Of a stretch of DNA of 64,000 nucleotides, positions 36,799 to 50,480 are shown in pieces (the first letter of the stretch is position 1; every line of letters starts with the position of its first letter). The DNA is taken from assembly GCF_011045215.1 (NCBI RefSeq), contig NZ_CP049201.1. One strand, 5' to 3'. The notes beneath the pieces were generated by a model that was given only the letters and a program-made list of their open reading frames with translations, searched no databases and was not told the origin of the DNA. The position numbers were made by a program, and so were the translations under genes. The DNA is from Escherichia coli (GTDB taxonomy: Bacteria > Pseudomonadota > Gammaproteobacteria > Enterobacterales > Enterobacteriaceae).

Positions 36799-37665
36799 CT
36801 AAGCGAGGTTCTGGTTTTCAAATTGTTCCGGACTGAGGCCGCCACACCAACTGTGCCGCCGCCACCGATTGTAATCACATTCGATATAATTAAACACCGT
36901 TGCCCGCATTATTTCCCGGCTGATAAAGTGTTCTCCATGGATACATTCCACTTTCAGCGAATGAAAGAAGCTTTCCACGCAGGCATTATCGTAGCAGCAA
37001 CCTTTTGCGCTCATACTTCCACGCAGATTATGCCGCTTCAGTTGCGCCTGATAATCTGCTGAACAGTACTGGCCTCCACGGTCCGTGTGAACGATAACGT
37101 TCCGGGGCCTCTTACGCCGCCACAGCGCCATCTGCAGGGCATCGCAGGCCAGTTGCGCCGTCATGCGTGGCGACATTGACCAGCCAATAACGGCACGTGA
37201 CCACAGGTCAATGACCACTGCCAGATACAGCCAGCCTTCATCTGTACGTAAGTACGTGATGTCTCCTGCCCACTTCTGGTTCGGGCCACTGGCGTAAAAA
37301 TCCTGCTCCAACAGATTTTCTGACACAGGCAGGCCGTGTGCGCGGTAGCTGACCGGGCTGAACTTCCGGGAGGCCTTTGCCCTCAGTCCCTGACGGCGCA
37401 GGCTTGCCGCCACGGTTTTTACGTTAAAGGGGTAACCCTGAGCACGCAGTTCATCCGTCAGGCGTGGGGCACCGTAACGCTGTTTTGACCGGGTAAAAGC
37501 CGCGAGGACAACGCTGTCGCAGTGTTGGCGGAACTGCTGACGCGTGCTTATCCTTGTCCGCCGCTGACACCACGTATACCAGCCGCTGCGGGCCACCCGG
37601 AGCACGCGGCACATTGCTTTGATGCTGAACTCAGCCTGATGTTTTTCAATAAAGACATACTTCAT
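36799..37665 (-). CDS. insF: IS3 transposase OrfB (DDE integrase-type catalytic domain)
   Basis: 288-aa ORF with DDE-domain residues (...WAGDITYL..., ...[10 protein letters not shown]...) inside the IS3 element. Confidence 0.9.
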
Positions 37666-37970
37666 TTCAGGCGCTTCGCGAAGTATGTCGCGGCCTTTTG
37701 GAGGATAGCCAGCTCTTCATCCCGTTCTGCCAGCTGGCGTTTGAGACGTGCAATCTCGGTAGACATCTCCAGTTCACGTTCAGAAGACGTCTGCTGATTT
37801 TGCTGTTTACTGCGCCAGTTGTAGAGCTGTGATTCATACAGGCTGAGTTCACGGGCTGCGGCAGTAACACCGATGCGTTCAGCAAGCTTCAGGGCTTCAC
37901 TGCGAAATTCAGGCGAATGCTGTTTACGGGGTTTTTTACTGGTTGATACTGTTTTTGTCATGTGAGTCAC
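37662..37970 (-). CDS. insE: IS3 transposase OrfA (HTH protein)
   Basis: 102-aa [55 protein letters not shown]... inside the IS3 element. Confidence 0.9.
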
Positions 37971-38589: not shown

Positions 38590-38906
38590 GAATTGGAAAG
38601 GAGCTTTCCTTTCAGGCTGCTTTAACTTCGGTAAAATACGTTCTTGAAGCACCAGATAATAAAGTCGGTAATATTGCCACTATTGAGTTTTTCATCAAGG
38701 TTAATTACGAGAATAACCCTTCTGATAAAGCTGAAGTTGAGAAGGTGCTTAATGAATCAGAACTGAAGAATGCTCTTAAGTCCAGAATTCTTGATGATAC
38801 TGTCAGGCAACACAGATGATTAAATCATCTGGATGTATTTAATGCATAAACATTTCTGAATGATACATAAAAATTGTATTTAATGTTTCCCTCCTGGAGA
38901 ATCTCT

Positions 38907-39191
38907 ATGCCCACAGCAGCCAGACTCAGCGATAAAGGCACCCAGCATGACGGTTATTATGAGACCACCATTATTGCAGGCTCCTCCACCGTCTTTATTG
39001 ATGGTATGCCCGCCGCCCGTCAGGGCGATCCGCTGACACCGCATTCCAAACCTGACCATCCCCCTCACCCCCGTAAAATCGCAGGCGGCTCTGCCACTGT
39101 CTTTATTGACGGTAAACCTGCCGCCAGAACCGGCGATGCCATTGACTGTGGCGGCGTGGTTATCGGTGGCGGCACGGTAAATATAGGCTGA
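38907..39191 (+). CDS. PAAR-domain protein (T6SS spike tip)
   Basis: 94-aa protein with PAAR repeats (DGMPAARQGDP, DGKPAARTGDAIDCGG); start placed at the internal Met preceded by GGAGA; immediately upstream of vgrG. Confidence 0.85.
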   Translation: MPTAARLSDKGTQHDGYYETTIIAGSSTVFIDGMPAARQGDPLTPHSKPDHPPHPRKIAGGSATVFIDGKPAARTGDAIDCGGVVIGGGTVNIG

Positions 39192-39211: not shown

Positions 39212-41611
39212 ATGCCCTCAGAAGGATTACGTTTCACGCTGTCGGTGGACGGTATCGTGGAGATGGCGACGGCGGTGGTGAGCTTCCGTCTGTACCAGCA
39301 CCACTGCACGCCGTTCATCCTGGATGTGGATATCGCCAGCGGGCTGTCTGACCTGACGGCGGAGGATTTTCTGGAGAAGAGCGCGGTGCTGACGGTCTGG
39401 CAGGGTGATATCCCGCAGCGTTACGTCAGCGGTATCGTGACGGAGGTGCAACTGGGGGAGAACAACGACTGGCAGATGCGTTATTCCCTGAGCATCAGCC
39501 CGCCGCTGTGGCGGGCAGGGTTACGGCAGAACTTCCGTATCTTCCAGCAGCAGGACATCCAGACGATATCAGCACAGCTTCTGAGAGAGAACGGAGTGAC
39601 GGCATGGATGCCGCTGTTTTATGAAGACCATCCGGCGCGGGAGTTCTGTGTGCAGTACGGGGAAAGCGACCTGGCGTTTCTGGCGCGGCTGTGGGCGGAG
39701 GAGGGGATTTTCTTCTTTGAGCGGTTTGCGGCGGACAGTCCGGAGCAGAAGCTGACGCTGTGCGACGATGTGGCGGGGCTGTCACAGGCGGGAGAGCTTC
39801 CGTTTAACCCGGACACATCGGCAGGAGCGGAGACGGAGTGTCTCAGTACGTTCCGTTATGAGGCGCATGTCCGCCCGTCGTCGGTGCAGAGTCAGGATTA
39901 CACGTTTAAGGTGCCGGACTGGCCGGGGATGTATGAGCAGCAGGGTGAGAACCTGAACGGACAGCTGGCGCAGTACGAGATATTTGATTATCCGGGAAGG
40001 TTCAAGGATGAGCAGCACGGCAAGGATTTCACGCTGTACCAGATGGACAGCCTGCGCAGTGATGCGGAAAAGGCCACAGGGCAGAGTAATTCACCGAAGC
40101 TGTGGCCGGGAACGCGGTTTACGCTGACGGGGCATCCGCAGAAGATGCTGAACCGTGAATGGCAGGTGGTACAGAGCATACTGTCAGGAAGCCAGCCGCA
40201 GGCGCTGCACGGCAGCCAGGGGAGGGGAACCACGCTGGGAAATCAGTTAGAGGTGATACCGGCAGACCGGACGTGGCGTCCACGGCTGCAAAGCAAACCG
40301 AAGGTGGACGGGCCGCAGAGTGCCATTGTGACCGGGCCGAAGGGTGAGGAGATATTCTGCGACGAACATGGCCGGGTACGGGTGAAGTTCCACTGGGACC
40401 GTTATCACGGGATGACGGAGGCGAGTTCATGCTGGGTGCGGGTATCGCAGGCGTGGGCGGGGCCGGGGTTCGGTAACCTGGCGATACCGCGGGTGGGCCA
40501 GGAGGTGATTGTTGACTTCCTGAACGGCGACCCGGACCAGCCCATCGTCACGGGACGGACCTACCATGAAGATAACCGCTCCCCGGGCGACCTGCCGGGA
40601 ACGAAGACGCAGATGACGATACGGTCGAAGACCTATAAAGAAAGCGGATTTAACGAGTTGCGGTTTGAAGACGCCACCAGTAATGAGCAGGTGTATATCC
40701 ACGCGCAGAAGAACATGGATACGGAGGTGCTCAACGACCGGACAACGGATGTGAAGCATGACCATACGGAGACCATTGGTAACGACCAGAAGATAACGGT
40801 GGTGAAGGGGCAGACGGTTGAGGTCGGGACCAGAAAAGAAGGAGGCCACGACCAGAGTATCACGGTGGCGAACGACCGGAGCATAACGGTACGTAACGAC
40901 CAGACGCTGAAGGTGACAAATGACCGGACGGTGAGCGTGAGTCACGATGACGGTCTGTACGTCAGAAATGACCGTAGGGTGACGGTGAAAGGGAAGCAGG
41001 AGCATAAGACGACGGGTAACCACATCAGCCTGGTGGAGGGGAAGCACAGCCTGGAGGTGAAGGGGGACCTGGCGGAGAAGGTGAGTGGCGCGCTGGGGAT
41101 AGAAGTGGACGGGGATATCGTGCTGGAGAGCAGCAGCCGGATAAGCCTGAAGGTGGGTGGCTCGTTTATCGTCATTCAGCCGGGCGGAGTGGATATTGCC
41201 GGGCCGAAGATAAACCTGAACGGTGGGGGCAGTGCGGGGACACCGGTGGGGACGATGCAGCCGGCGGTGCTGGAGGCTCCGGAGGATGAGAGCAGTGATG
41301 ATGGCAGTGATGACTCCGGAGAGGATAGTGGCAATCCCGCAGGGAGTGACGGAGGAGGTGATGGCGGTGACGATGAAGATGATCCTGAAAAATATACCCT
41401 CCAGTTCCATTTTACGGACGATGACGGGATACCGTATTCAGAGACGCAGTATATTGCCTTTTTTGAGGATGGCACACAGACGCGTGGTGAAACAGACAGA
41501 GAGGGATATACAGAAATATTTTATACAGATACAGCACAGGAAATTAAAGTCCAATTGTTATTTTCGGATGCTTTTTATATTGAGCCGGAGGGGCATTATG
41601 GCAGGGAATAA
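39212..41611 (+). CDS. vgrG: Type VI secretion spike protein VgrG (799 aa) with an acidic linker and a small C-terminal extension domain
   Basis: Gp27-like N-terminal region, gp5-like OB-fold and beta-helix (WAGPGFGNLAIPRVGQEVIVDFLNGDPDQPIVTGRTYHEDNR; repeated ...NDRT/ITV... units), then an Asp/Glu/Gly/Ser-rich linker and a roughly 70-aa C-terminal domain. Confidence 0.92.
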   Translation: MPSEGLRFTLSVDGIVEMATAVVSFRLYQHHCTPFILDVDIASGLSDLTAEDFLEKSAVLTVWQGDIPQRYVSGIVTEVQLGENNDWQMRYSLSISPPLWRAGLRQNFRIFQQQDIQTISAQLLRENGVTAWMPLFYEDHPAREFCVQYGESDLAFLARLWAEEGIFFFERFAADSPEQKLTLCDDVAGLSQAGELPFNPDTSAGAETECLSTFRYEAHVRPSSVQSQDYTFKVPDWPGMYEQQGENLNGQLAQYEIFDYPGRFKDEQHGKDFTLYQMDSLRSDAEKATGQSNSPKLWPGTRFTLTGHPQKMLNREWQVVQSILSGSQPQALHGSQGRGTTLGNQLEVIPADRTWRPRLQSKPKVDGPQSAIVTGPKGEEIFCDEHGRVRVKFHWDRYHGMTEASSCWVRVSQAWAGPGFGNLAIPRVGQEVIVDFLNGDPDQPIVTGRTYHEDNRSPGDLPGTKTQMTIRSKTYKESGFNELRFEDATSNEQVYIHAQKNMDTEVLNDRTTDVKHDHTETIGNDQKITVVKGQTVEVGTRKEGGHDQSITVANDRSITVRNDQTLKVTNDRTVSVSHDDGLYVRNDRRVTVKGKQEHKTTGNHISLVEGKHSLEVKGDLAEKVSGALGIEVDGDIVLESSSRISLKVGGSFIVIQPGGVDIAGPKINLNGGGSAGTPVGTMQPAVLEAPEDESSDDGSDDSGEDSGNPAGSDGGGDGGDDEDDPEKYTLQFHFTDDDGIPYSETQYIAFFEDGTQTRGETDREGYTEIFYTDTAQEIKVQLLFSDAFYIEPEGHYGRE

Positions 41612-42401
41612 TAATACTAGTGGGACTTCACAACCCGAGTCGCAAGTATGTGTAGTACCGCAAAAAATTACAAATAAATTTAAAATAATGATGAGTAAGG
41701 CTTGTAAAGCACAGAAAATGGTTTTATTGAAAAGAGCAGATGATATTATGTCATGGGAGGGGGAACAACAACGAGATTTTATTAAAGTTTTTGGCCTTAA
41801 AGGCGAGGACATTATAAAAATCAGAAAGGTTGGGGAAGATACTGGGAAACGAATGCAAGCGAGACTATTCATAATGGATGGCATCAGACAAATAATGACG
41901 ATTGCAAATGGTTTGACGATCGAAAGCTATAAAGATTATACGAACTGCAATGAATTTGCTGCTTTTATTAGTCCACATCTTGATCCTCCTTACATTGTAA
42001 ATATCGGAGCGCATTTTGAATACAGACATGGTATAAAACAGTCGGTTACAGGTAGAGACTCTCATGTAAGTACACTTTGCCATGAAATGTCCCATATATT
42101 TTGGTATTGGGGTGACAATCAAAAAGGTGGTATGTGGACTCAGGATTATACGGGTATTAATAAGTTCGCAACAAGTAATAAGGATGAAGTTAGCTATGAG
42201 AAACATGTTTCAGTGGCTAATGATCTGGTTACATTGCGTAAAGATCAGTTATTTGAGAATGCATATAATGTTGAAAGATATTTTTATATAAAATTAAATG
42301 ATGAAGATATTGAAGCTCAAGATGAGAATATGTTAGCAAAAAAAGTAGAGGATAAAATAAAAGAGATAGAAAAATGTTTTGATGAGTTGATGGGGAAATA
42401 A
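41598..42401 (+). CDS. Putative T6SS effector: uncharacterised protein with an HExxH zinc-metallopeptidase-like motif (267 aa)
   Basis: Start ATG lies within the last 14 nt of vgrG (translational coupling); contains CHEMSHIFWYWGDNQKGGMWTQDYTG (HExxH followed by conserved Asp residues); abrupt drop in GC content relative to vgrG; followed by a secreted-protein gene. Confidence 0.6.
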   Translation: MAGNNNTSGTSQPESQVCVVPQKITNKFKIMMSKACKAQKMVLLKRADDIMSWEGEQQRDFIKVFGLKGEDIIKIRKVGEDTGKRMQARLFIMDGIRQIMTIANGLTIESYKDYTNCNEFAAFISPHLDPPYIVNIGAHFEYRHGIKQSVTGRDSHVSTLCHEMSHIFWYWGDNQKGGMWTQDYTGINKFATSNKDEVSYEKHVSVANDLVTLRKDQLFENAYNVERYFYIKLNDEDIEAQDENMLAKKVEDKIKEIEKCFDELMGK

Positions 42402-42402
42402 G

Positions 42403-43242
42403 ATGAAGAGGTTGGCTTTCTATAATCTAAATTATGTTGTACTGATGGTTTTTTTTCTTTGTTTTTTGCCATTATCTATTGCAATTGCAATAGATAATGA
42501 GAATCTTTTTGTAAAAAAATACAGATTCGGTTTTGAACGAAGAAATGACAATGGGAAACCAATTATTTATCTTAGCCATAATTTAGCGCCAGAGGAAAAT
42601 ATAAGTAATGAATTAACAAATGATGTTGTTGTTAAATTGGTGGTTAAGCCACATGCTGAAAATATTTTAGCTACTATAACTTTTTATAACAGTAGTACTA
42701 AATCGTATTTTCTCCCCAGAATATATTATCCAAAGAACTTCCAAAAAGGAAATGGAGATGTATTTGATGCTTTGTGTGATGACGAATTCTTGATTACATC
42801 AGGAAATATTAGCTTAGACTATCTAGGAGGCTTTTGTCCCTTTGAGCTTGATTTGAATTTGAGCCGATGGGTGGAAATTACGGCAGGTAAAAAAATATCT
42901 TTTGATGTAAAATTGAATGATATGCATTCATTTCTCCCCAGTTTAAATAATTATCATATAAAAACATTAAACTACAAACTTGTTAGGAGAAAATGGTTTG
43001 TATTAAAATCAATTAATGAAACATTCCTCTCTATTTTGATGAAAAGATACTCATGTAATGAATATGATTTTAGAGCTATATCATTTAGTGGAGAGGGATG
43101 TGATAATTATGAATTTGATAAAAATACGTTTTTTTTTGTTAATCAAATATTAGATAAAGATGATGAGCAACATTCTGTTCATATTAGGTCTAATGAATTT
43201 TCCATCAATATCGATGGAAGCTTGGTAAAGCAACCTTATTGA
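42403..43242 (+). CDS. Putative cognate immunity protein (279 aa, N-terminal signal peptide or membrane anchor)
   Basis: Begins 1 nt after the effector stop; hydrophobic N-terminus (VVLMVFFLCFLPLSIAIAI) suggests periplasmic localisation; AT-rich like the effector gene. Confidence 0.5.
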   Translation: MKRLAFYNLNYVVLMVFFLCFLPLSIAIAIDNENLFVKKYRFGFERRNDNGKPIIYLSHNLAPEENISNELTNDVVVKLVVKPHAENILATITFYNSSTKSYFLPRIYYPKNFQKGNGDVFDALCDDEFLITSGNISLDYLGGFCPFELDLNLSRWVEITAGKKISFDVKLNDMHSFLPSLNNYHIKTLNYKLVRRKWFVLKSINETFLSILMKRYSCNEYDFRAISFSGEGCDNYEFDKNTFFFVNQILDKDDEQHSVHIRSNEFSINIDGSLVKQPY

Positions 43243-43304
43243 TTAAAATGTATCGCAGGTTTTATTTTCTGTAATGCTGGTGCATGTGCGTAAATATTTC
43301 TTAA

Positions 43305-43730
43305 GAGCCGGAAACACCTCTTCCGCCTTTATCGACGATAAACCTACCGCCAGAACCGGTGATGCCATTGACTGCGGTGGCGTGGTTAAAGGTGGAGGGC
43401 GATGTGGTGCTGGAGAGCAGCAGCCGGATAAGCCTGAAGGTGGGCGGCTCGTTTGTGGTCATCCATTCAGGGGGCGTGGACATCGTCGGGCCGAAAATCA
43501 ATCTCAATAGCGGCGGTAGTCCGGGAACGCCGGTGCCGACGCTGCAACCGGCGGTTCTGAAAGCGCTGGCAGATGATAAAAGTTTAGCGGCTGAGCAAAA
43601 TGATAGTAATGCATCGTCCGATCAGAATGATAACAACGATGAGGGTGAGGAAGCGCCAGAAAAATCGGTGTGTAAGGAGTGCCTGAAAAGGGCGCAAGAA
43701 GCCGCCGCCGTTTTTGCGCCTCGTGGATAA
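43305..43730 (+). pseudogene. PAAR-vgrG deletion-fusion remnant (3' end of a PAAR gene joined to the 3' end of a second vgrG)
   Basis: 43309..43392 closely matches the PAAR 3' end at 39092..39175 (...FIDDKPTARTGDAIDCGGVV...); from about 43393 the sequence matches vgrG at about 41110..41245 (VLESSSRISLKVGGSF.V.....GGVDI.GPKINLN.GG) and then continues into a different C-terminal tail. Confidence 0.8.
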
Positions 43731-43736
43731 GGGAGA

Positions 43737-44506
43737 ATGACAATGATAACAGTATCGCCACACGCTACCGATCAAGACAAATATATTATCTGGCTGAAGC
43801 AAGCTGAATCATTCTGTTCTGCCGCTGGTTTGGATTACATAGATGTGCTTGTTGACCAGGCTGGAACCGACCAACCTTTGCAAAATGATATGCTTCATCT
43901 GTCGCCAGCCATTCACTGGTATGCCCTGTTTGAAGGAACGCCTGAAGCTGAGACGATGGAGTATTCCCCTGTAGTGTTACGCCTGTACTTTGCGCTCAGT
44001 AGCCATCGCAAATTTCTGGCACAACTGATGGCGTCATTTGCTGATACGCCGCGTCTTACTTTGTTGATATCCCCTCTTACATTCGACCTGCTGGGCGGCA
44101 TCTTCAGGTATTGTCACAGGTTCAGTGGGAAGAACAGACCGGATTGCTGCGTTACTATGATAATCGGGTGTTCCCTTTACTGTTCACACATGTTTTGACT
44201 AACGAGCAGCAGGCGACATTTACTGATATTGCGTTGTTCTGGAGCTGGTTAGACCGTGATGGTGAGATTAACTGGAAATCAGGAAGTTTTTCACCAGAAC
44301 GCAGGCTTACTGACAACCCGGAGATGAATCGGGTGGATGATGTACAGGTGGGATTGATGGGCTGTATCTGCGACGCTGAAGTCCTGATGAAGGAGAAAGC
44401 AGTCAGTGAACTCAGTCAGGAAAGCTATTTTGCCCACTGTCTTGATATTGCTTTCAGGGCCAATGACGCGAAATATTTCGGAGCTTTGCGGGACTTCGAA
44501 GGATAA
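43737..44506 (+). pseudogene. T6SS adaptor/chaperone-like gene (DUF4123-type, Tap/Tec family), split across two overlapping reading frames
   Basis: Two overlapping ORFs (43737..44198 and 44111..44506) together span about 256 codons, in the adaptor position between a vgrG 3' end and a DUF2235 effector gene; family assignment is by position and recalled sequence character. Confidence 0.5.
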
Positions 44507-44819: not shown

Positions 44820-45362
44820 ATGTCCAGCAAAATAAGAAATGGAATGAATATAACAAAAGTAGTTAAAGGCTGTCTGGTATTAATTTTGATGGTGATTTCT
44901 GGTTGCTCAGCAGATAATTACGACGATTATACTGCAGGTGATCTCCGGGCAATAAATCATATTAAAGGTATCAGTATTAATTGGTTCACCGTAAATGGTT
45001 ATCGGGTCCATGGTTTGGGCGGTGGATATTGCTGCATAATGTTACCAAAGAAGTGGCATTCTGGATTAAAAGCCCGGATCGAGTGGGAAGTAGACCCGAC
45101 CCCCCTTGAACCTATTGCAATGAAAAAAGAAGGTTTTGGCTATGAAGAAGATGCTTATGCTAAACATGCTGCAAATTATCAAAAATATAAAGTAATTGTT
45201 GACATCCCGGAATACGGCGCTGAACGTTGTGGCCTGACCGTTCATTTTCTGCCGTGTAATCAGATTAAAGTGACAACCGTCTGCGAGGGCTATGGCACAC
45301 CGAATTATCCTATCAAAGAACCCCGCGAGATGAAGGAACCTGCAACATGTCCAGCAAAATAA
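44820..45362 (+). CDS. Lipoprotein (180 aa), candidate Tle1-associated immunity or accessory protein (DUF3304-like)
   Basis: Signal peptide with lipobox (LILMVISGCSADN); directly upstream of and overlapping the Tle1-like gene. Confidence 0.55.
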   Translation: MSSKIRNGMNITKVVKGCLVLILMVISGCSADNYDDYTAGDLRAINHIKGISINWFTVNGYRVHGLGGGYCCIMLPKKWHSGLKARIEWEVDPTPLEPIAMKKEGFGYEEDAYAKHAANYQKYKVIVDIPEYGAERCGLTVHFLPCNQIKVTTVCEGYGTPNYPIKEPREMKEPATCPAK

Positions 45363-47440
45363 GTGGTCTGGCTTTTCCGTGTTATGCCCCCCCGGTGTTC
45401 CCTGAAGATGGGCGATTAATATTATCTGAAGCGCAGGTAAACGCGAACTACCTAAAACAAATCAATAAAACAGAAGAGCACAAAACCAACTGTAGTAAAC
45501 AGGCTGGATTTAGAATTGGCTTTACGTGTAATCAAAGTATGCATATTAGTCTGTTTTTTGATGGTACAAATAATAATGAATATAATGACACTCCTGGACA
45601 CCCAACCAATATTGCCAAACTGTTTCATACGACCTATCAGAACGCAGAAGAACAGGGATATTTTAACTACTATATACCGGGTGTAGGCACACCATTTCCC
45701 AAGATAGGTGAAATGGATTACAGCAACAGCGGGCTGGAGTTCGCTACTGGTGGTGAAGATCGAATTAATTGGGCATTATTACGCCTCGTGGATGCCCTGA
45801 GCTATTCCATTGACCCTTCCCATAAGCGACTGGATGATAATGTGGCAAAAGAGCACATTCCTCTTATGCGCGCTCCCTGGCCTATGACTGGTGAAGTGAA
45901 TCGTCGCAATGTGATTAACCCCTACCTGGAAAAATTACAGGGACTGTTAGAGCAAGCCAGTCCGCGCCTGCTAAACGTAAAGCTGTTTATCTACGGATTT
46001 TCCCGTGGCGCAGCGGAAGCACGAACTTTTGTTAACTGGTTGACTCAGTTAGCTTGCCCGCAGGAGCAACAGGTGATGCTGGCCGGGTTAGCTGTCAGTA
46101 TTGAGTTTTTGGGGCTGCTGGATACCGTAGCTTCTGTGGGGGCGGCGCATGTTTTACCGGGCGCTGCCGGTCATATGGGATGGGCCGATAGTACTCAGCA
46201 ACTCCCTGATGAGAGGCAGTTTCCCGGCCTGATTAAATGCTGCCGCCACTTCGTTGCCGCGCATGAGCAGCGGCTGTGCTTTCCGCTGGATTCAATCCGT
46301 CGTCCAGACGGAAATTATCCTTTAAATGCAGAGGAAATTATCTATCCGGGGATGCACTCTGATGTCGGTGGTGGCTATCCCGTTCGCGATCAGGGGAAGT
46401 CCTGTGGTGACTCAGGCGAAATTCTTTCTCAGATAGCACTGCATGATATGTATCTTGCTGCATTTGATTCAGGAGCACCACTTGCTGTTTATTCTAAATT
46501 TGTTACTCCATTAATAAAAGGTGTGTCGCCTCTGCGAATTATGAGTCCTTCTAGCGTAAAGGAATTTACGATTGCTAATTCATTAACAAAACGCTTCAAC
46601 ATCTGGCGACAAACGCTGCTGAACACCACCTTGCAGGGTACAGAAGAAATGATTGATACGAGGGAAGGTTATCACTCCTATCAACTTGCCCAGGTTCTTG
46701 AAAGCGCAATTAGCGATCAGATCGGCTGGATCACCGCCTGGCGTATCGGTCGCTATGCGAATAACAGCCTTCTTGTGCAACCTTTTTATATTAAGGCGCC
46801 ACAGCTGGATAAAGATGGACTTGATAAAGAGGCTAAAGCGCGTAAAGAACAAATGGAAAATATTGAAAAAGAGCGGGCGAACAAGCAGAAAGGGAATGGC
46901 ACACTTGATGAAAGTAATCAGGGCATTCCTATCCTTGACCCAACCAATGCTCAGTATCAGTTGCGAGAGGCAGCCCGAGAATTTCAGAGCGATTATAAAG
47001 GATGGACGCGCGATATTAACGGCAGCGTCATGGAGAAAGCCATTCAGATTCTTGTGGATGTCATTCCTAAATATCCGGTGTATCTGATTAATGGCGATGA
47101 TGAAGCAAAAGAATATCAGCAAATTAAGGCTATGGGAGACGGACTCTATCCACAATTTTTTATTGATTCACTGGGAACGGGAACGCGTACTCAGCCATGC
47201 GCTGAATTACTGGCCCTCTATGATGACCAGGTTCACGACTCCCGCGCCTGGTTTATGCAAAGTTCGCTGGGTGGACGTGAACCCTGGGGCGGTTATTTTC
47301 GCTACCGCATGATTTACTTCGGTGATGAGGCTAATAAAGAGCTGAAGCTAATCTCTGCAGATGGCAAAGTTGTTGGCGATCAGCCCACATCCAACCGGGT
47401 CATTTATTGGATGGAATCGAAAACGGTGAGCCGAGGTTAA
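45347..47440 (+). CDS. Tle1-family T6SS phospholipase effector (DUF2235 alpha/beta-hydrolase, 697 aa)
   Basis: DUF2235 hallmark ISLFFDGTNNNEYND...; nucleophile elbow GxSxG (IYGFSRGAAEAR); vgrG-adaptor-effector gene order. Confidence 0.75.
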   Translation: MSSKISGLAFPCYAPPVFPEDGRLILSEAQVNANYLKQINKTEEHKTNCSKQAGFRIGFTCNQSMHISLFFDGTNNNEYNDTPGHPTNIAKLFHTTYQNAEEQGYFNYYIPGVGTPFPKIGEMDYSNSGLEFATGGEDRINWALLRLVDALSYSIDPSHKRLDDNVAKEHIPLMRAPWPMTGEVNRRNVINPYLEKLQGLLEQASPRLLNVKLFIYGFSRGAAEARTFVNWLTQLACPQEQQVMLAGLAVSIEFLGLLDTVASVGAAHVLPGAAGHMGWADSTQQLPDERQFPGLIKCCRHFVAAHEQRLCFPLDSIRRPDGNYPLNAEEIIYPGMHSDVGGGYPVRDQGKSCGDSGEILSQIALHDMYLAAFDSGAPLAVYSKFVTPLIKGVSPLRIMSPSSVKEFTIANSLTKRFNIWRQTLLNTTLQGTEEMIDTREGYHSYQLAQVLESAISDQIGWITAWRIGRYANNSLLVQPFYIKAPQLDKDGLDKEAKARKEQMENIEKERANKQKGNGTLDESNQGIPILDPTNAQYQLREAAREFQSDYKGWTRDINGSVMEKAIQILVDVIPKYPVYLINGDDEAKEYQQIKAMGDGLYPQFFIDSLGTGTRTQPCAELLALYDDQVHDSRAWFMQSSLGGREPWGGYFRYRMIYFGDEANKELKLISADGKVVGDQPTSNRVIYWMESKTVSRG

Positions 47441-47697: not shown

Positions 47698-50480
<2,783 letters not shown>

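Follow-up and report, generated by a model that had tools for sequence, protein, structure and literature searches.

In a 64,000-nucleotide stretch of Escherichia coli DNA (assembly GCF_011045215.1, contig NZ_CP049201.1; hereafter the window), which belongs to the mltD-to-fadE region, two AT-rich genes follow directly on a vgrG gene. The question raised by this locus was whether the two genes encode an effector and an immunity protein of a type VI secretion system (T6SS) and, if so, whether the pair is new. The first-pass annotation of the DNA had proposed such a pair, with a periplasm-directed partner, and had recognised neither protein as a member of a named T6SS effector family. Homology to proteins tested by others and a conserved gene order supported the first proposal, and we consider it probable that the region is a PAAR-VgrG-effector-immunity module of the T6SS with a zinc peptidase as effector and an exported immunity partner. 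The supposed novelty did not hold, and sequence comparison places the pair in an already recognised, partly tested family. The features of the module, in window coordinates, are as follows.

38874-39191, plus strand: PAAR gene for the spike-tip protein, directly 5' of vgrG (open reading frame (ORF) of 105 amino acids; NCBIfam NF033420 T6SS_PAAR_dom, E 8.8e-48, above the curated cut-off)
39212-41611, plus strand: vgrG, 799 amino acids, a gp27/gp5-like spike with a beta-helical extension (TIGR03361, E 2.4e-179; TIGR01646, E 4.6e-127)
41393-41611, plus strand: TTR-like (transthyretin-like fold) C-terminal domain of VgrG, about residues 728-799, from profile comparison
41598-42401, plus strand: gene 1, an M35/aspzincin-type zinc metallopeptidase of 267 amino acids, predicted cargo effector
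42081-42095, plus strand: HExxH motif of gene 1 (His162-Glu163-Met-Ser-His166) on the active-site helix, from alignment with GfMEP
42144-42146, plus strand: Asp183 of gene 1, predicted third zinc ligand, invariant and placed on GfMEP Asp130 in the profile alignment
42258-42284, plus strand: NAYNVERYF, C-terminal family signature of gene 1 (residues 221-229), counterpart of NADNHE in GfMEP
42403-43242, plus strand: gene 2, predicted periplasmic immunity protein of 279 amino acids, from homology to AKO63_2956
42403-42489, plus strand: gene 2 signal peptide or signal anchor (roughly residues 1-29), ending in PLSIAIA/ID, from its hydrophobic N-terminal core

The ORF coordinates agreed with the tight coupling that had been described. 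The gene 1 ATG at 41598 lies 14 nt before the vgrG stop codon, with a Shine-Dalgarno-like run (GGAGGGG) just 5' of it; the gene 1 stop codon TAA occupies 42399-42401, and the gene 2 ATG follows one base on, at 42403. The GC content of 0.27-0.38 over 41500-43250, against 0.55-0.62 in vgrG, likewise matched the AT-rich, foreign composition noticed earlier. A scan for promoters and terminators gave matches only at chance level. The order of vgrG 3' end, gene 1 relative and gene 2 relative was found again in 9 more cassettes, spread over 7 other distinct loci. The loci examined were the yncG-locus islands of GCA_025641165 (L002), strain PAR (L009) and strain BCE049 (L011), an assembled-read contig with the same allele (L003), two further cassettes of PAR, and four contigs from metagenomes or read assemblies that hold distant relatives. 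In all of these the gene 1 relative overlapped or abutted the vgrG 3' end, and a gene 2 relative lay directly 3' of every gene 1 relative; the complete order of PAAR, vgrG, effector and partner was also present at the yncG locus of other E. coli strains. Because relatives at 25-65% amino-acid identity keep this order, the comparison argues that both ORFs are real genes. Downstream of one of the distant cassettes, a gene with PG_binding_1 and Peptidase_M23 domains is followed by a small ORF (L016:2423-3686), and these may be another cell-wall effector-immunity pair.

The gene 1 product on its own gave a weak Pfam match to Aspzincin_M35 (PF14521, E 0.0014), no NCBIfam or PADLOC match and no PDB sequence match, single-sequence PDB searches returning noise only. 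An indexed protein search found 9 close relatives, and an exhaustive HMMER search yielded no more than 49 relatives among 1.84 billion cluster representatives, which indicated that the family is small. When 28 mostly full-length members were aligned (alignment A2), Aspzincin_M35 matched 4 of the 28 at E ≤ 0.001 and 18 at E ≤ 0.1, the best at 3.5e-9, and the A2 profile matched the solved M35 members AsaP1 (E 2.2e-7) and GfMEP (E 2.2e-5). An AlphaFold model of gene 1 computed with A2 reached a pLDDT of 89.2 and a pTM of 0.87, and its fold is shared with solved M35 structures. With an alignment of 7 sequences the catalytic core was modelled poorly (pLDDT 53), and the distant relatives from HMMER were needed for a good model.

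Invariant in A2 were TGxDS...TLCHExSH, the Asp of GGMGTxD, and NAYNxExYF. The peptide CHEMSHIFWYWGDNQKGGMWTQDYTG, gene 1 residues 161-186, had been singled out as an HExxH motif followed by conserved Asp residues. The HExxH motif stood in all 28 members, with Cys161, His162, Glu163, Ser165 and His166 invariant; it aligned with H117-E118-x-x-H121 of GfMEP and lies on helix 156-165 of the predicted model. Among the Asp residues, only Asp183 was conserved (28 of 28), the others of the peptide being variable, and the profile alignment set it on Asp130 in the GTKD of GfMEP. The family consensus around it is GGMGTxD, for which the window reads GGMWTQD; in terms of the aspzincin motif GTxDxxYG the window has WTQDYTG, and the YG half is not conserved in the family. 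Toward the C-terminus, Tyr223, Asn224, Glu226, Tyr228 and Phe229 were invariant. GfMEP reads N152-A-D154-N-H-E157 here, and by inspection Glu226 corresponds to Glu157, with Tyr223 in place of Asp154; we take the residues of this Asp154/Glu157 region to serve lysine recognition in GfMEP. From these alignments His162, His166 and Asp183 are predicted to be the zinc ligands and Glu163 the catalytic base, and we read the motifs and fold as those of a protein of some 30 kDa, a predicted zinc endopeptidase that has the M35 (aspzincin) fold. A non-proteolytic role, in which the gene 1 protein would only bind zinc, as a scavenger like Candida Pra1 with its M35-like fold, and the gene 2 protein would be its periplasmic receptor or partner, seems to us the least probable of the readings considered here, and only barely credible.

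Characterised M35 members are typically secreted zymogens with a signal peptide and an inhibitory propeptide, although this is not a family-defining trait. The N-terminus of gene 1 is hydrophilic, its best 12-residue Kyte-Doolittle score (KD) being 0.44, and has neither signal peptide nor propeptide; in the model, the first 17-24 residues are predicted to be disordered and the catalytic domain follows directly. At the other end, residues 232-267 (42291-42401) form a confidently modelled charged helix that is confined to the close subfamily, that is, the window protein and relatives at 56-65% identity; distant members stop directly after ERYFEI. The gene 1 model also matched VgrG proteins of 828 and 969 amino acids in the AlphaFold database, for which the place of the match within the protein is unreported.

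The hydrophobic N-terminal signal or anchor that had been ascribed to gene 2 was evident in its best 12-residue KD of 2.96 at residue 11, and the protein had no lipobox and no later membrane-spanning segment. All 10 family members examined had an N-terminal hydrophobic core (12-residue KD 2.2-3.0), followed in most by a small-x-small site, and a lipobox or second membrane-spanning segment was found in 0 of the 10; the gene 1-type effectors have no hydrophobic N-terminus. From these features we predict that the gene 2 protein is exported by Sec and is either soluble in the periplasm or N-terminally anchored. Cys125 and Cys145 were nearly invariant in the family, which would be consistent with a periplasmic disulfide. 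None of Pfam, NCBIfam, PADLOC and PDB yielded a relative of gene 2. Iota-carbonic anhydrase matched over a short stretch (E 1.1e-5), but this hit dwindled to a repeated motif and was gone with a wider profile, and it was dismissed as chance.

Two further observations concern gene 2 and its relatives. Within gene 2, at 42470-42499, two perfectly complementary 13-bp arms enclose a 4-nt loop (CATTATCTATTGC AATT GCAATAGATAATG); this inverted repeat codes for the end of the signal peptide (PLSIAIAIDNE), and the sequence differs there in relatives. On one metagenome contig (L012:1203-3014), two tandem gene 2 paralogues follow a single effector gene; duplication of the immunity gene is typical of effector-immunity loci.

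Two relatives of gene 1 have been tested by others. The closest is the 'M35-peptidase' FQU84_RS13640 of module 5 in strain BCE049 (WP_000342575.1), with 57% identity to gene 1 over 261 residues (E 5e-120), which was reported to inhibit growth only when given a PelB leader, cytoplasmic expression having no such effect (PMC7904677, 2021). The accessible text of that paper reports no immunity test for this M35 pair. The BCE049 partner gene (L011:31063-31834) is split into two short ORFs, FQU84_RS27625 and FQU84_RS27630, and may be disrupted or bear a sequencing error. The second tested relative, M35-PAR (AKO63_2955), showed 27% identity to gene 1 (E 4e-28); M35-PAR was reported to be toxic in E. 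coli when expressed from pET22b and to be neutralised by the downstream AKO63_2956 (PMC10673891, 2023). Gene 2 in turn showed 31% identity to AKO63_2956, the reported M35-PAR immunity protein, over 213 amino acids (E 3e-30), and 41% identity to the partner at the yncG locus of PAR (E 2e-50).

The PAR locus was found with a 35-nt sequence rebuilt from two overlapping published primers, on a segment of NZ_CP012379.1 (2966615-2978649, L010) that holds the two genes at these positions:

L010:6016-6804: M35-PAR
L010:6889-7815: AKO63_2956

The AKO63_2955 primers fit the RefSeq sequence, the start exactly over 35 nt and the end as compared by eye. The published primers for AKO63_2956 and for the 2955-2956 junction (L010:6805-7815 for these two) differ from RefSeq PAR at several bases, while encoding the same C-terminal peptide LYSSMQ. 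Those for AKO63_2954 differ at several bases as well, and AKO63_2956 and AKO63_2954 were therefore assigned by position and encoded peptide. The same segment holds a second VgrG-M35-partner cassette at L010:1-3022, so that with the yncG locus PAR has three paralogous cassettes.

These relatives, together with existing names, account for why the family could not be called new. In RefSeq gene 1 goes by 'peptidase M35' or 'M35 family metalloendopeptidase', and UniProt names its relatives 'Lysine-specific metallo-endopeptidase domain-containing protein'. The AlphaFold database relatives, from Salmonella, Shigella, Enterobacter, Citrobacter, Buttiauxella and Phytobacter, bear that name or 'Peptidase M35', and 'M35_like' stands among the PAAR-associated toxins listed in PMC8651086. 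In the literature collection searched, no paper joined 'aspzincin' with 'T6SS' or 'peptidase M35' with 'VgrG'. Homology essentially places the pair in an effector/immunity family that is already characterised in part. The tested relatives also bear on whether gene 1, by analogy with AsaP1, an M35 toxin of Aeromonas, might chiefly be a virulence protease aimed at the host, with gene 2 as an accessory rather than an immunity gene. Relatives were toxic to E. coli itself in the periplasm and were neutralised by the downstream gene (PMC7904677, PMC10673891); deletion of the BCE049 effector locus containing the relative did not lower virulence in mice (PMC7904677); and an exported partner stands in every cassette, which fits self-protection. 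We therefore regard a host-directed role as very unlikely, and an antibacterial effector/immunity pair as the reading to be preferred.

How such an effector would be loaded was suggested by the VgrG encoded in front of it. This VgrG matched the Pfam families Phage_GPD, Phage_base_V and Gp5_trimer_C (twice) and, weakly, DUF2345 (E 0.094); its TTR-like domain, which follows an acidic linker rich in Gly, Asp and Ser, had no Pfam match. The C-terminal domain of about 70 residues was common to all 8 VgrGs aligned in front of gene 1 relatives (alignment A6), with the consensus F.F.DDDG.PY...YIA...DGT...G.TD..G.T..F...I.V.LL. The A6 profile matched the C-terminal region 781-830 of VgrG1 from enteroaggregative E. 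coli (EAEC; 6sjl, E 6.4e-5) and residues 9-63 of the VgrG2b construct 6h56 (E 5.5e-3). The TTR fold of EAEC VgrG1 has been implicated in Tle1 delivery (as cited in PMC6899460). M35-PAR was reported to bind 'DUF2345-PAR' (AKO63_2954) and not 'VgrG-PAR' lacking it (PMC10673891). We found that AKO63_2954 corresponds to the last 235 residues of a VgrG whose gene is annotated in RefSeq as frameshifted, with an internal stop, so that 'VgrG-PAR' and 'DUF2345-PAR' look like two halves of one disrupted gene, and the binding of M35-PAR maps to a part of VgrG that includes the TTR-like domain. An adaptor gene was absent from every cassette examined. In the window, as the first-pass annotation had stated, the cassette holds no DUF4123-type adaptor, a DUF4123 gene further downstream (43737-44506) being part of a Tle1 module. 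The reported binding, the conserved TTR-like domain and the adaptor-free cassettes together support its suggestion of loading through the VgrG C-terminal extension, and by analogy we propose the TTR-like domain as the docking site of the effector.

The mechanism that we propose combines these lines of evidence with what is reported for the relatives, from which periplasm-confined toxicity, its suppression by the gene downstream and attachment of the effector to the VgrG C-terminus are carried over by analogy. The gene 1 protein would be translated from the start codon inside the last 14 nt of vgrG, would attach, without a covalent bond, to the C-terminal portion of its own VgrG, which ends in the TTR-like domain, and would be carried on the spike into the periplasm of a Gram-negative neighbour. 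There it would stop growth by zinc-dependent cutting of one or more envelope proteins. The gene 2 protein, exported by Sec and retained in the periplasm of the producer, would neutralise effector arriving from sister cells, direct binding being the most likely means. T6SS delivery, zinc-dependent proteolysis as the cause of toxicity and binding as the mode of immunity are steps that we infer. Since Glu226 corresponds to a lysine-binding residue of GfMEP, one could go further and suppose that these effectors prefer a basic residue at the cut site and kill by severing an envelope link that depends on lysine, or a set of lipoproteins, such as those around the Lpp-peptidoglycan tether. The gene 2 protein, large and with its presumed disulfide, might then replace the absent M35 propeptide, one of its side chains filling the S1' pocket, where the enzyme takes up the residue that follows the cut. 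We offer this as a speculation that is unlikely to prove correct; if true, lysine-link cutting and immunity by propeptide mimicry would give the T6SS a toxin mechanism and an immunity fold that have yet to be described for it.

The genomic setting raised the question of whether the module is used at all. Large neighbours in the window include FadE, a flagellar FlhA-like protein and, upstream of the spike/effector island, IS110, an EAL-domain phosphodiesterase and an autotransporter. The island itself is flanked by two insertion sequences:

36799-37970: IS3, upstream of the spike/effector island
48342-50143: IS21, downstream of the island

Among the ORFs of at least 180 amino acids in the 64-kb window there were no T6SS core genes. 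In strain A30 the same vgrG-M35-partner-Tle1 island comes after tssB to tssK and hcp, where the window has IS3, and the IS3-PAAR-vgrG junction was found in 0 complete E. coli genomes (at ≥ 80% coverage). Relative to A30, the DUF4123/Tla1 chaperone gene of the Tle1 module is broken into two ORFs by a 1-nt deletion in a G run near 44093; Tli1a (44820-45362) and Tle1 (45347-47440) look intact. Just 5' of the Tle1 module, at 43327-43730, two partial copies are joined, one of the PAAR 3' end (43327-43398, an 88% match to 39101-39172) and one of the vgrG 3' region (43369-43583, a 76% match to 41082-41296), and the fused frame ends at 43730 with a different C-terminus. This PAAR'-'vgrG deletion remnant points to a recombination within vgrG by which the M35 module replaced the resident spike genes.

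These features would fit a module that is intact but idle, an orphan, insertion sequence-flanked remnant of the T6SS-1 locus near aspV that lost its core genes, so that neither protein acts in this strain. Against this, PAAR, vgrG, gene 1 and gene 2 all have their full length, and 12 other genomes have copies of them at 99.5-99.8% identity; orphan PAAR-vgrG islands of like design sit far from the annotated core clusters in BCE049. A second T6SS elsewhere in the genome is also possible in E. coli, BCE049 having two (PMC7904677). We consider an idle remnant improbable, though less so than a host-directed protease, and retain the functional T6SS module as the preferred interpretation.

Several points nevertheless weigh against that interpretation. 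The missing core genes are one, and the IS3 and IS21 flanks and the frameshifted Tle1 chaperone gene make deployment of the module in the source strain uncertain. For gene 1, the match of the window protein alone (E 0.0014) falls below Pfam significance, and the aspzincin GTxDxxYG motif is kept only in part. The functional data come from relatives, and judged by sequence the window allele is only 27% identical to M35-PAR, and gene 2 only 31% to AKO63_2956. In addition, the accessible text of PMC7904677 and PMC10673891 describes for the M35 family no catalytic-site mutant, no substrate and neither secretion nor competition that depends on a T6SS.

The window allele occurred in 12 of 5426 complete E. 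coli genomes. The BCE049 allele type, at the yncG locus, occurred in at least 508 of the same 5426, and the PAR-type junction sequence in 196 E. coli genomes. The window pair adds a rare allele to an M35-type T6SS toxin family whose other alleles are common in E. coli. It leaves the general understanding of T6SS effectors unchanged, but the M35 family could offer a tractable route to a new periplasmic point of attack.

Among tested relatives, the pair in the window is closest to module 5 of BCE049, which has the same order of PAAR, vgrG, effector and partner and a partner 41% identical to gene 2; the BCE049 cassette lies at the yncG locus, whereas that of the window lies near fadE. M35-PAR resembles gene 1 in that its start overlaps the end of the upstream vgrG frame and its VgrG bears the same TTR-like C-terminal domain. 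It differs in ending at RYFEID, without the helical tail of about 35 residues, and in that the PAR vgrG is a frameshifted pseudogene in RefSeq, whereas the window vgrG is intact. The canonical M35 aspzincins GfMEP (1g12), AsaP1 (2x3a) and deuterolysin (1eb6) are more remote, with 15-19% sequence identity to gene 1. Relative to them, gene 1 has an 8-residue insert between HExxH and the Asp ligand, lacks the YG of GTxDxxYG and has Tyr223 where GfMEP has Asp154; it is paired with an immunity protein and a proposed T6SS delivery rather than secreted as a zymogen. EAEC VgrG1-Tle1 shares with the module in the window an adaptor-free cargo effector and a related terminal TTR-like domain on VgrG, but its cargo is a phospholipase and that of the window a predicted peptidase, whose binding to the TTR-like domain we infer.

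VgrG2b/Tpe1-Tpi1 called for a closer comparison, because PMC10673891 equates M35-PAR with the VgrG2b toxin domain. Like the module proposed here, that system consists of a periplasm-acting HExxH effector with an envelope immunity protein encoded downstream (PMC6899460), and its layout of VgrG, beta-helix, TTR-like domain and metallopeptidase recurs in the module of the window, except that the latter is split into two genes after the TTR-like domain. The VgrG2b toxin domain belongs to the DUF4157 gluzincins, in which a Glu on a later helix is the third ligand of zinc, in this case Glu983 (PMC6899460). In gene 1 the invariant candidate is Asp183, aligned with the Asp ligand of GfMEP. Membership of gene 1 in the VgrG2b/DUF4157 family was rejected: DUF4157 matched 0 of the 28 family members at E ≤ 0.1, and the A2 profile gave no match to 6h56 at E ≤ 10, although 6h56 was present in the structure set searched. 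The comparison indicated that the M35-type effectors and VgrG2b/Tpe1 belong to different peptidase families despite their common layout, and it clarifies that the putative aspzincin effectors, with an immunity family of their own and a dedicated TTR-bearing VgrG, are distinct from the VgrG2b/Tpe1 gluzincins.

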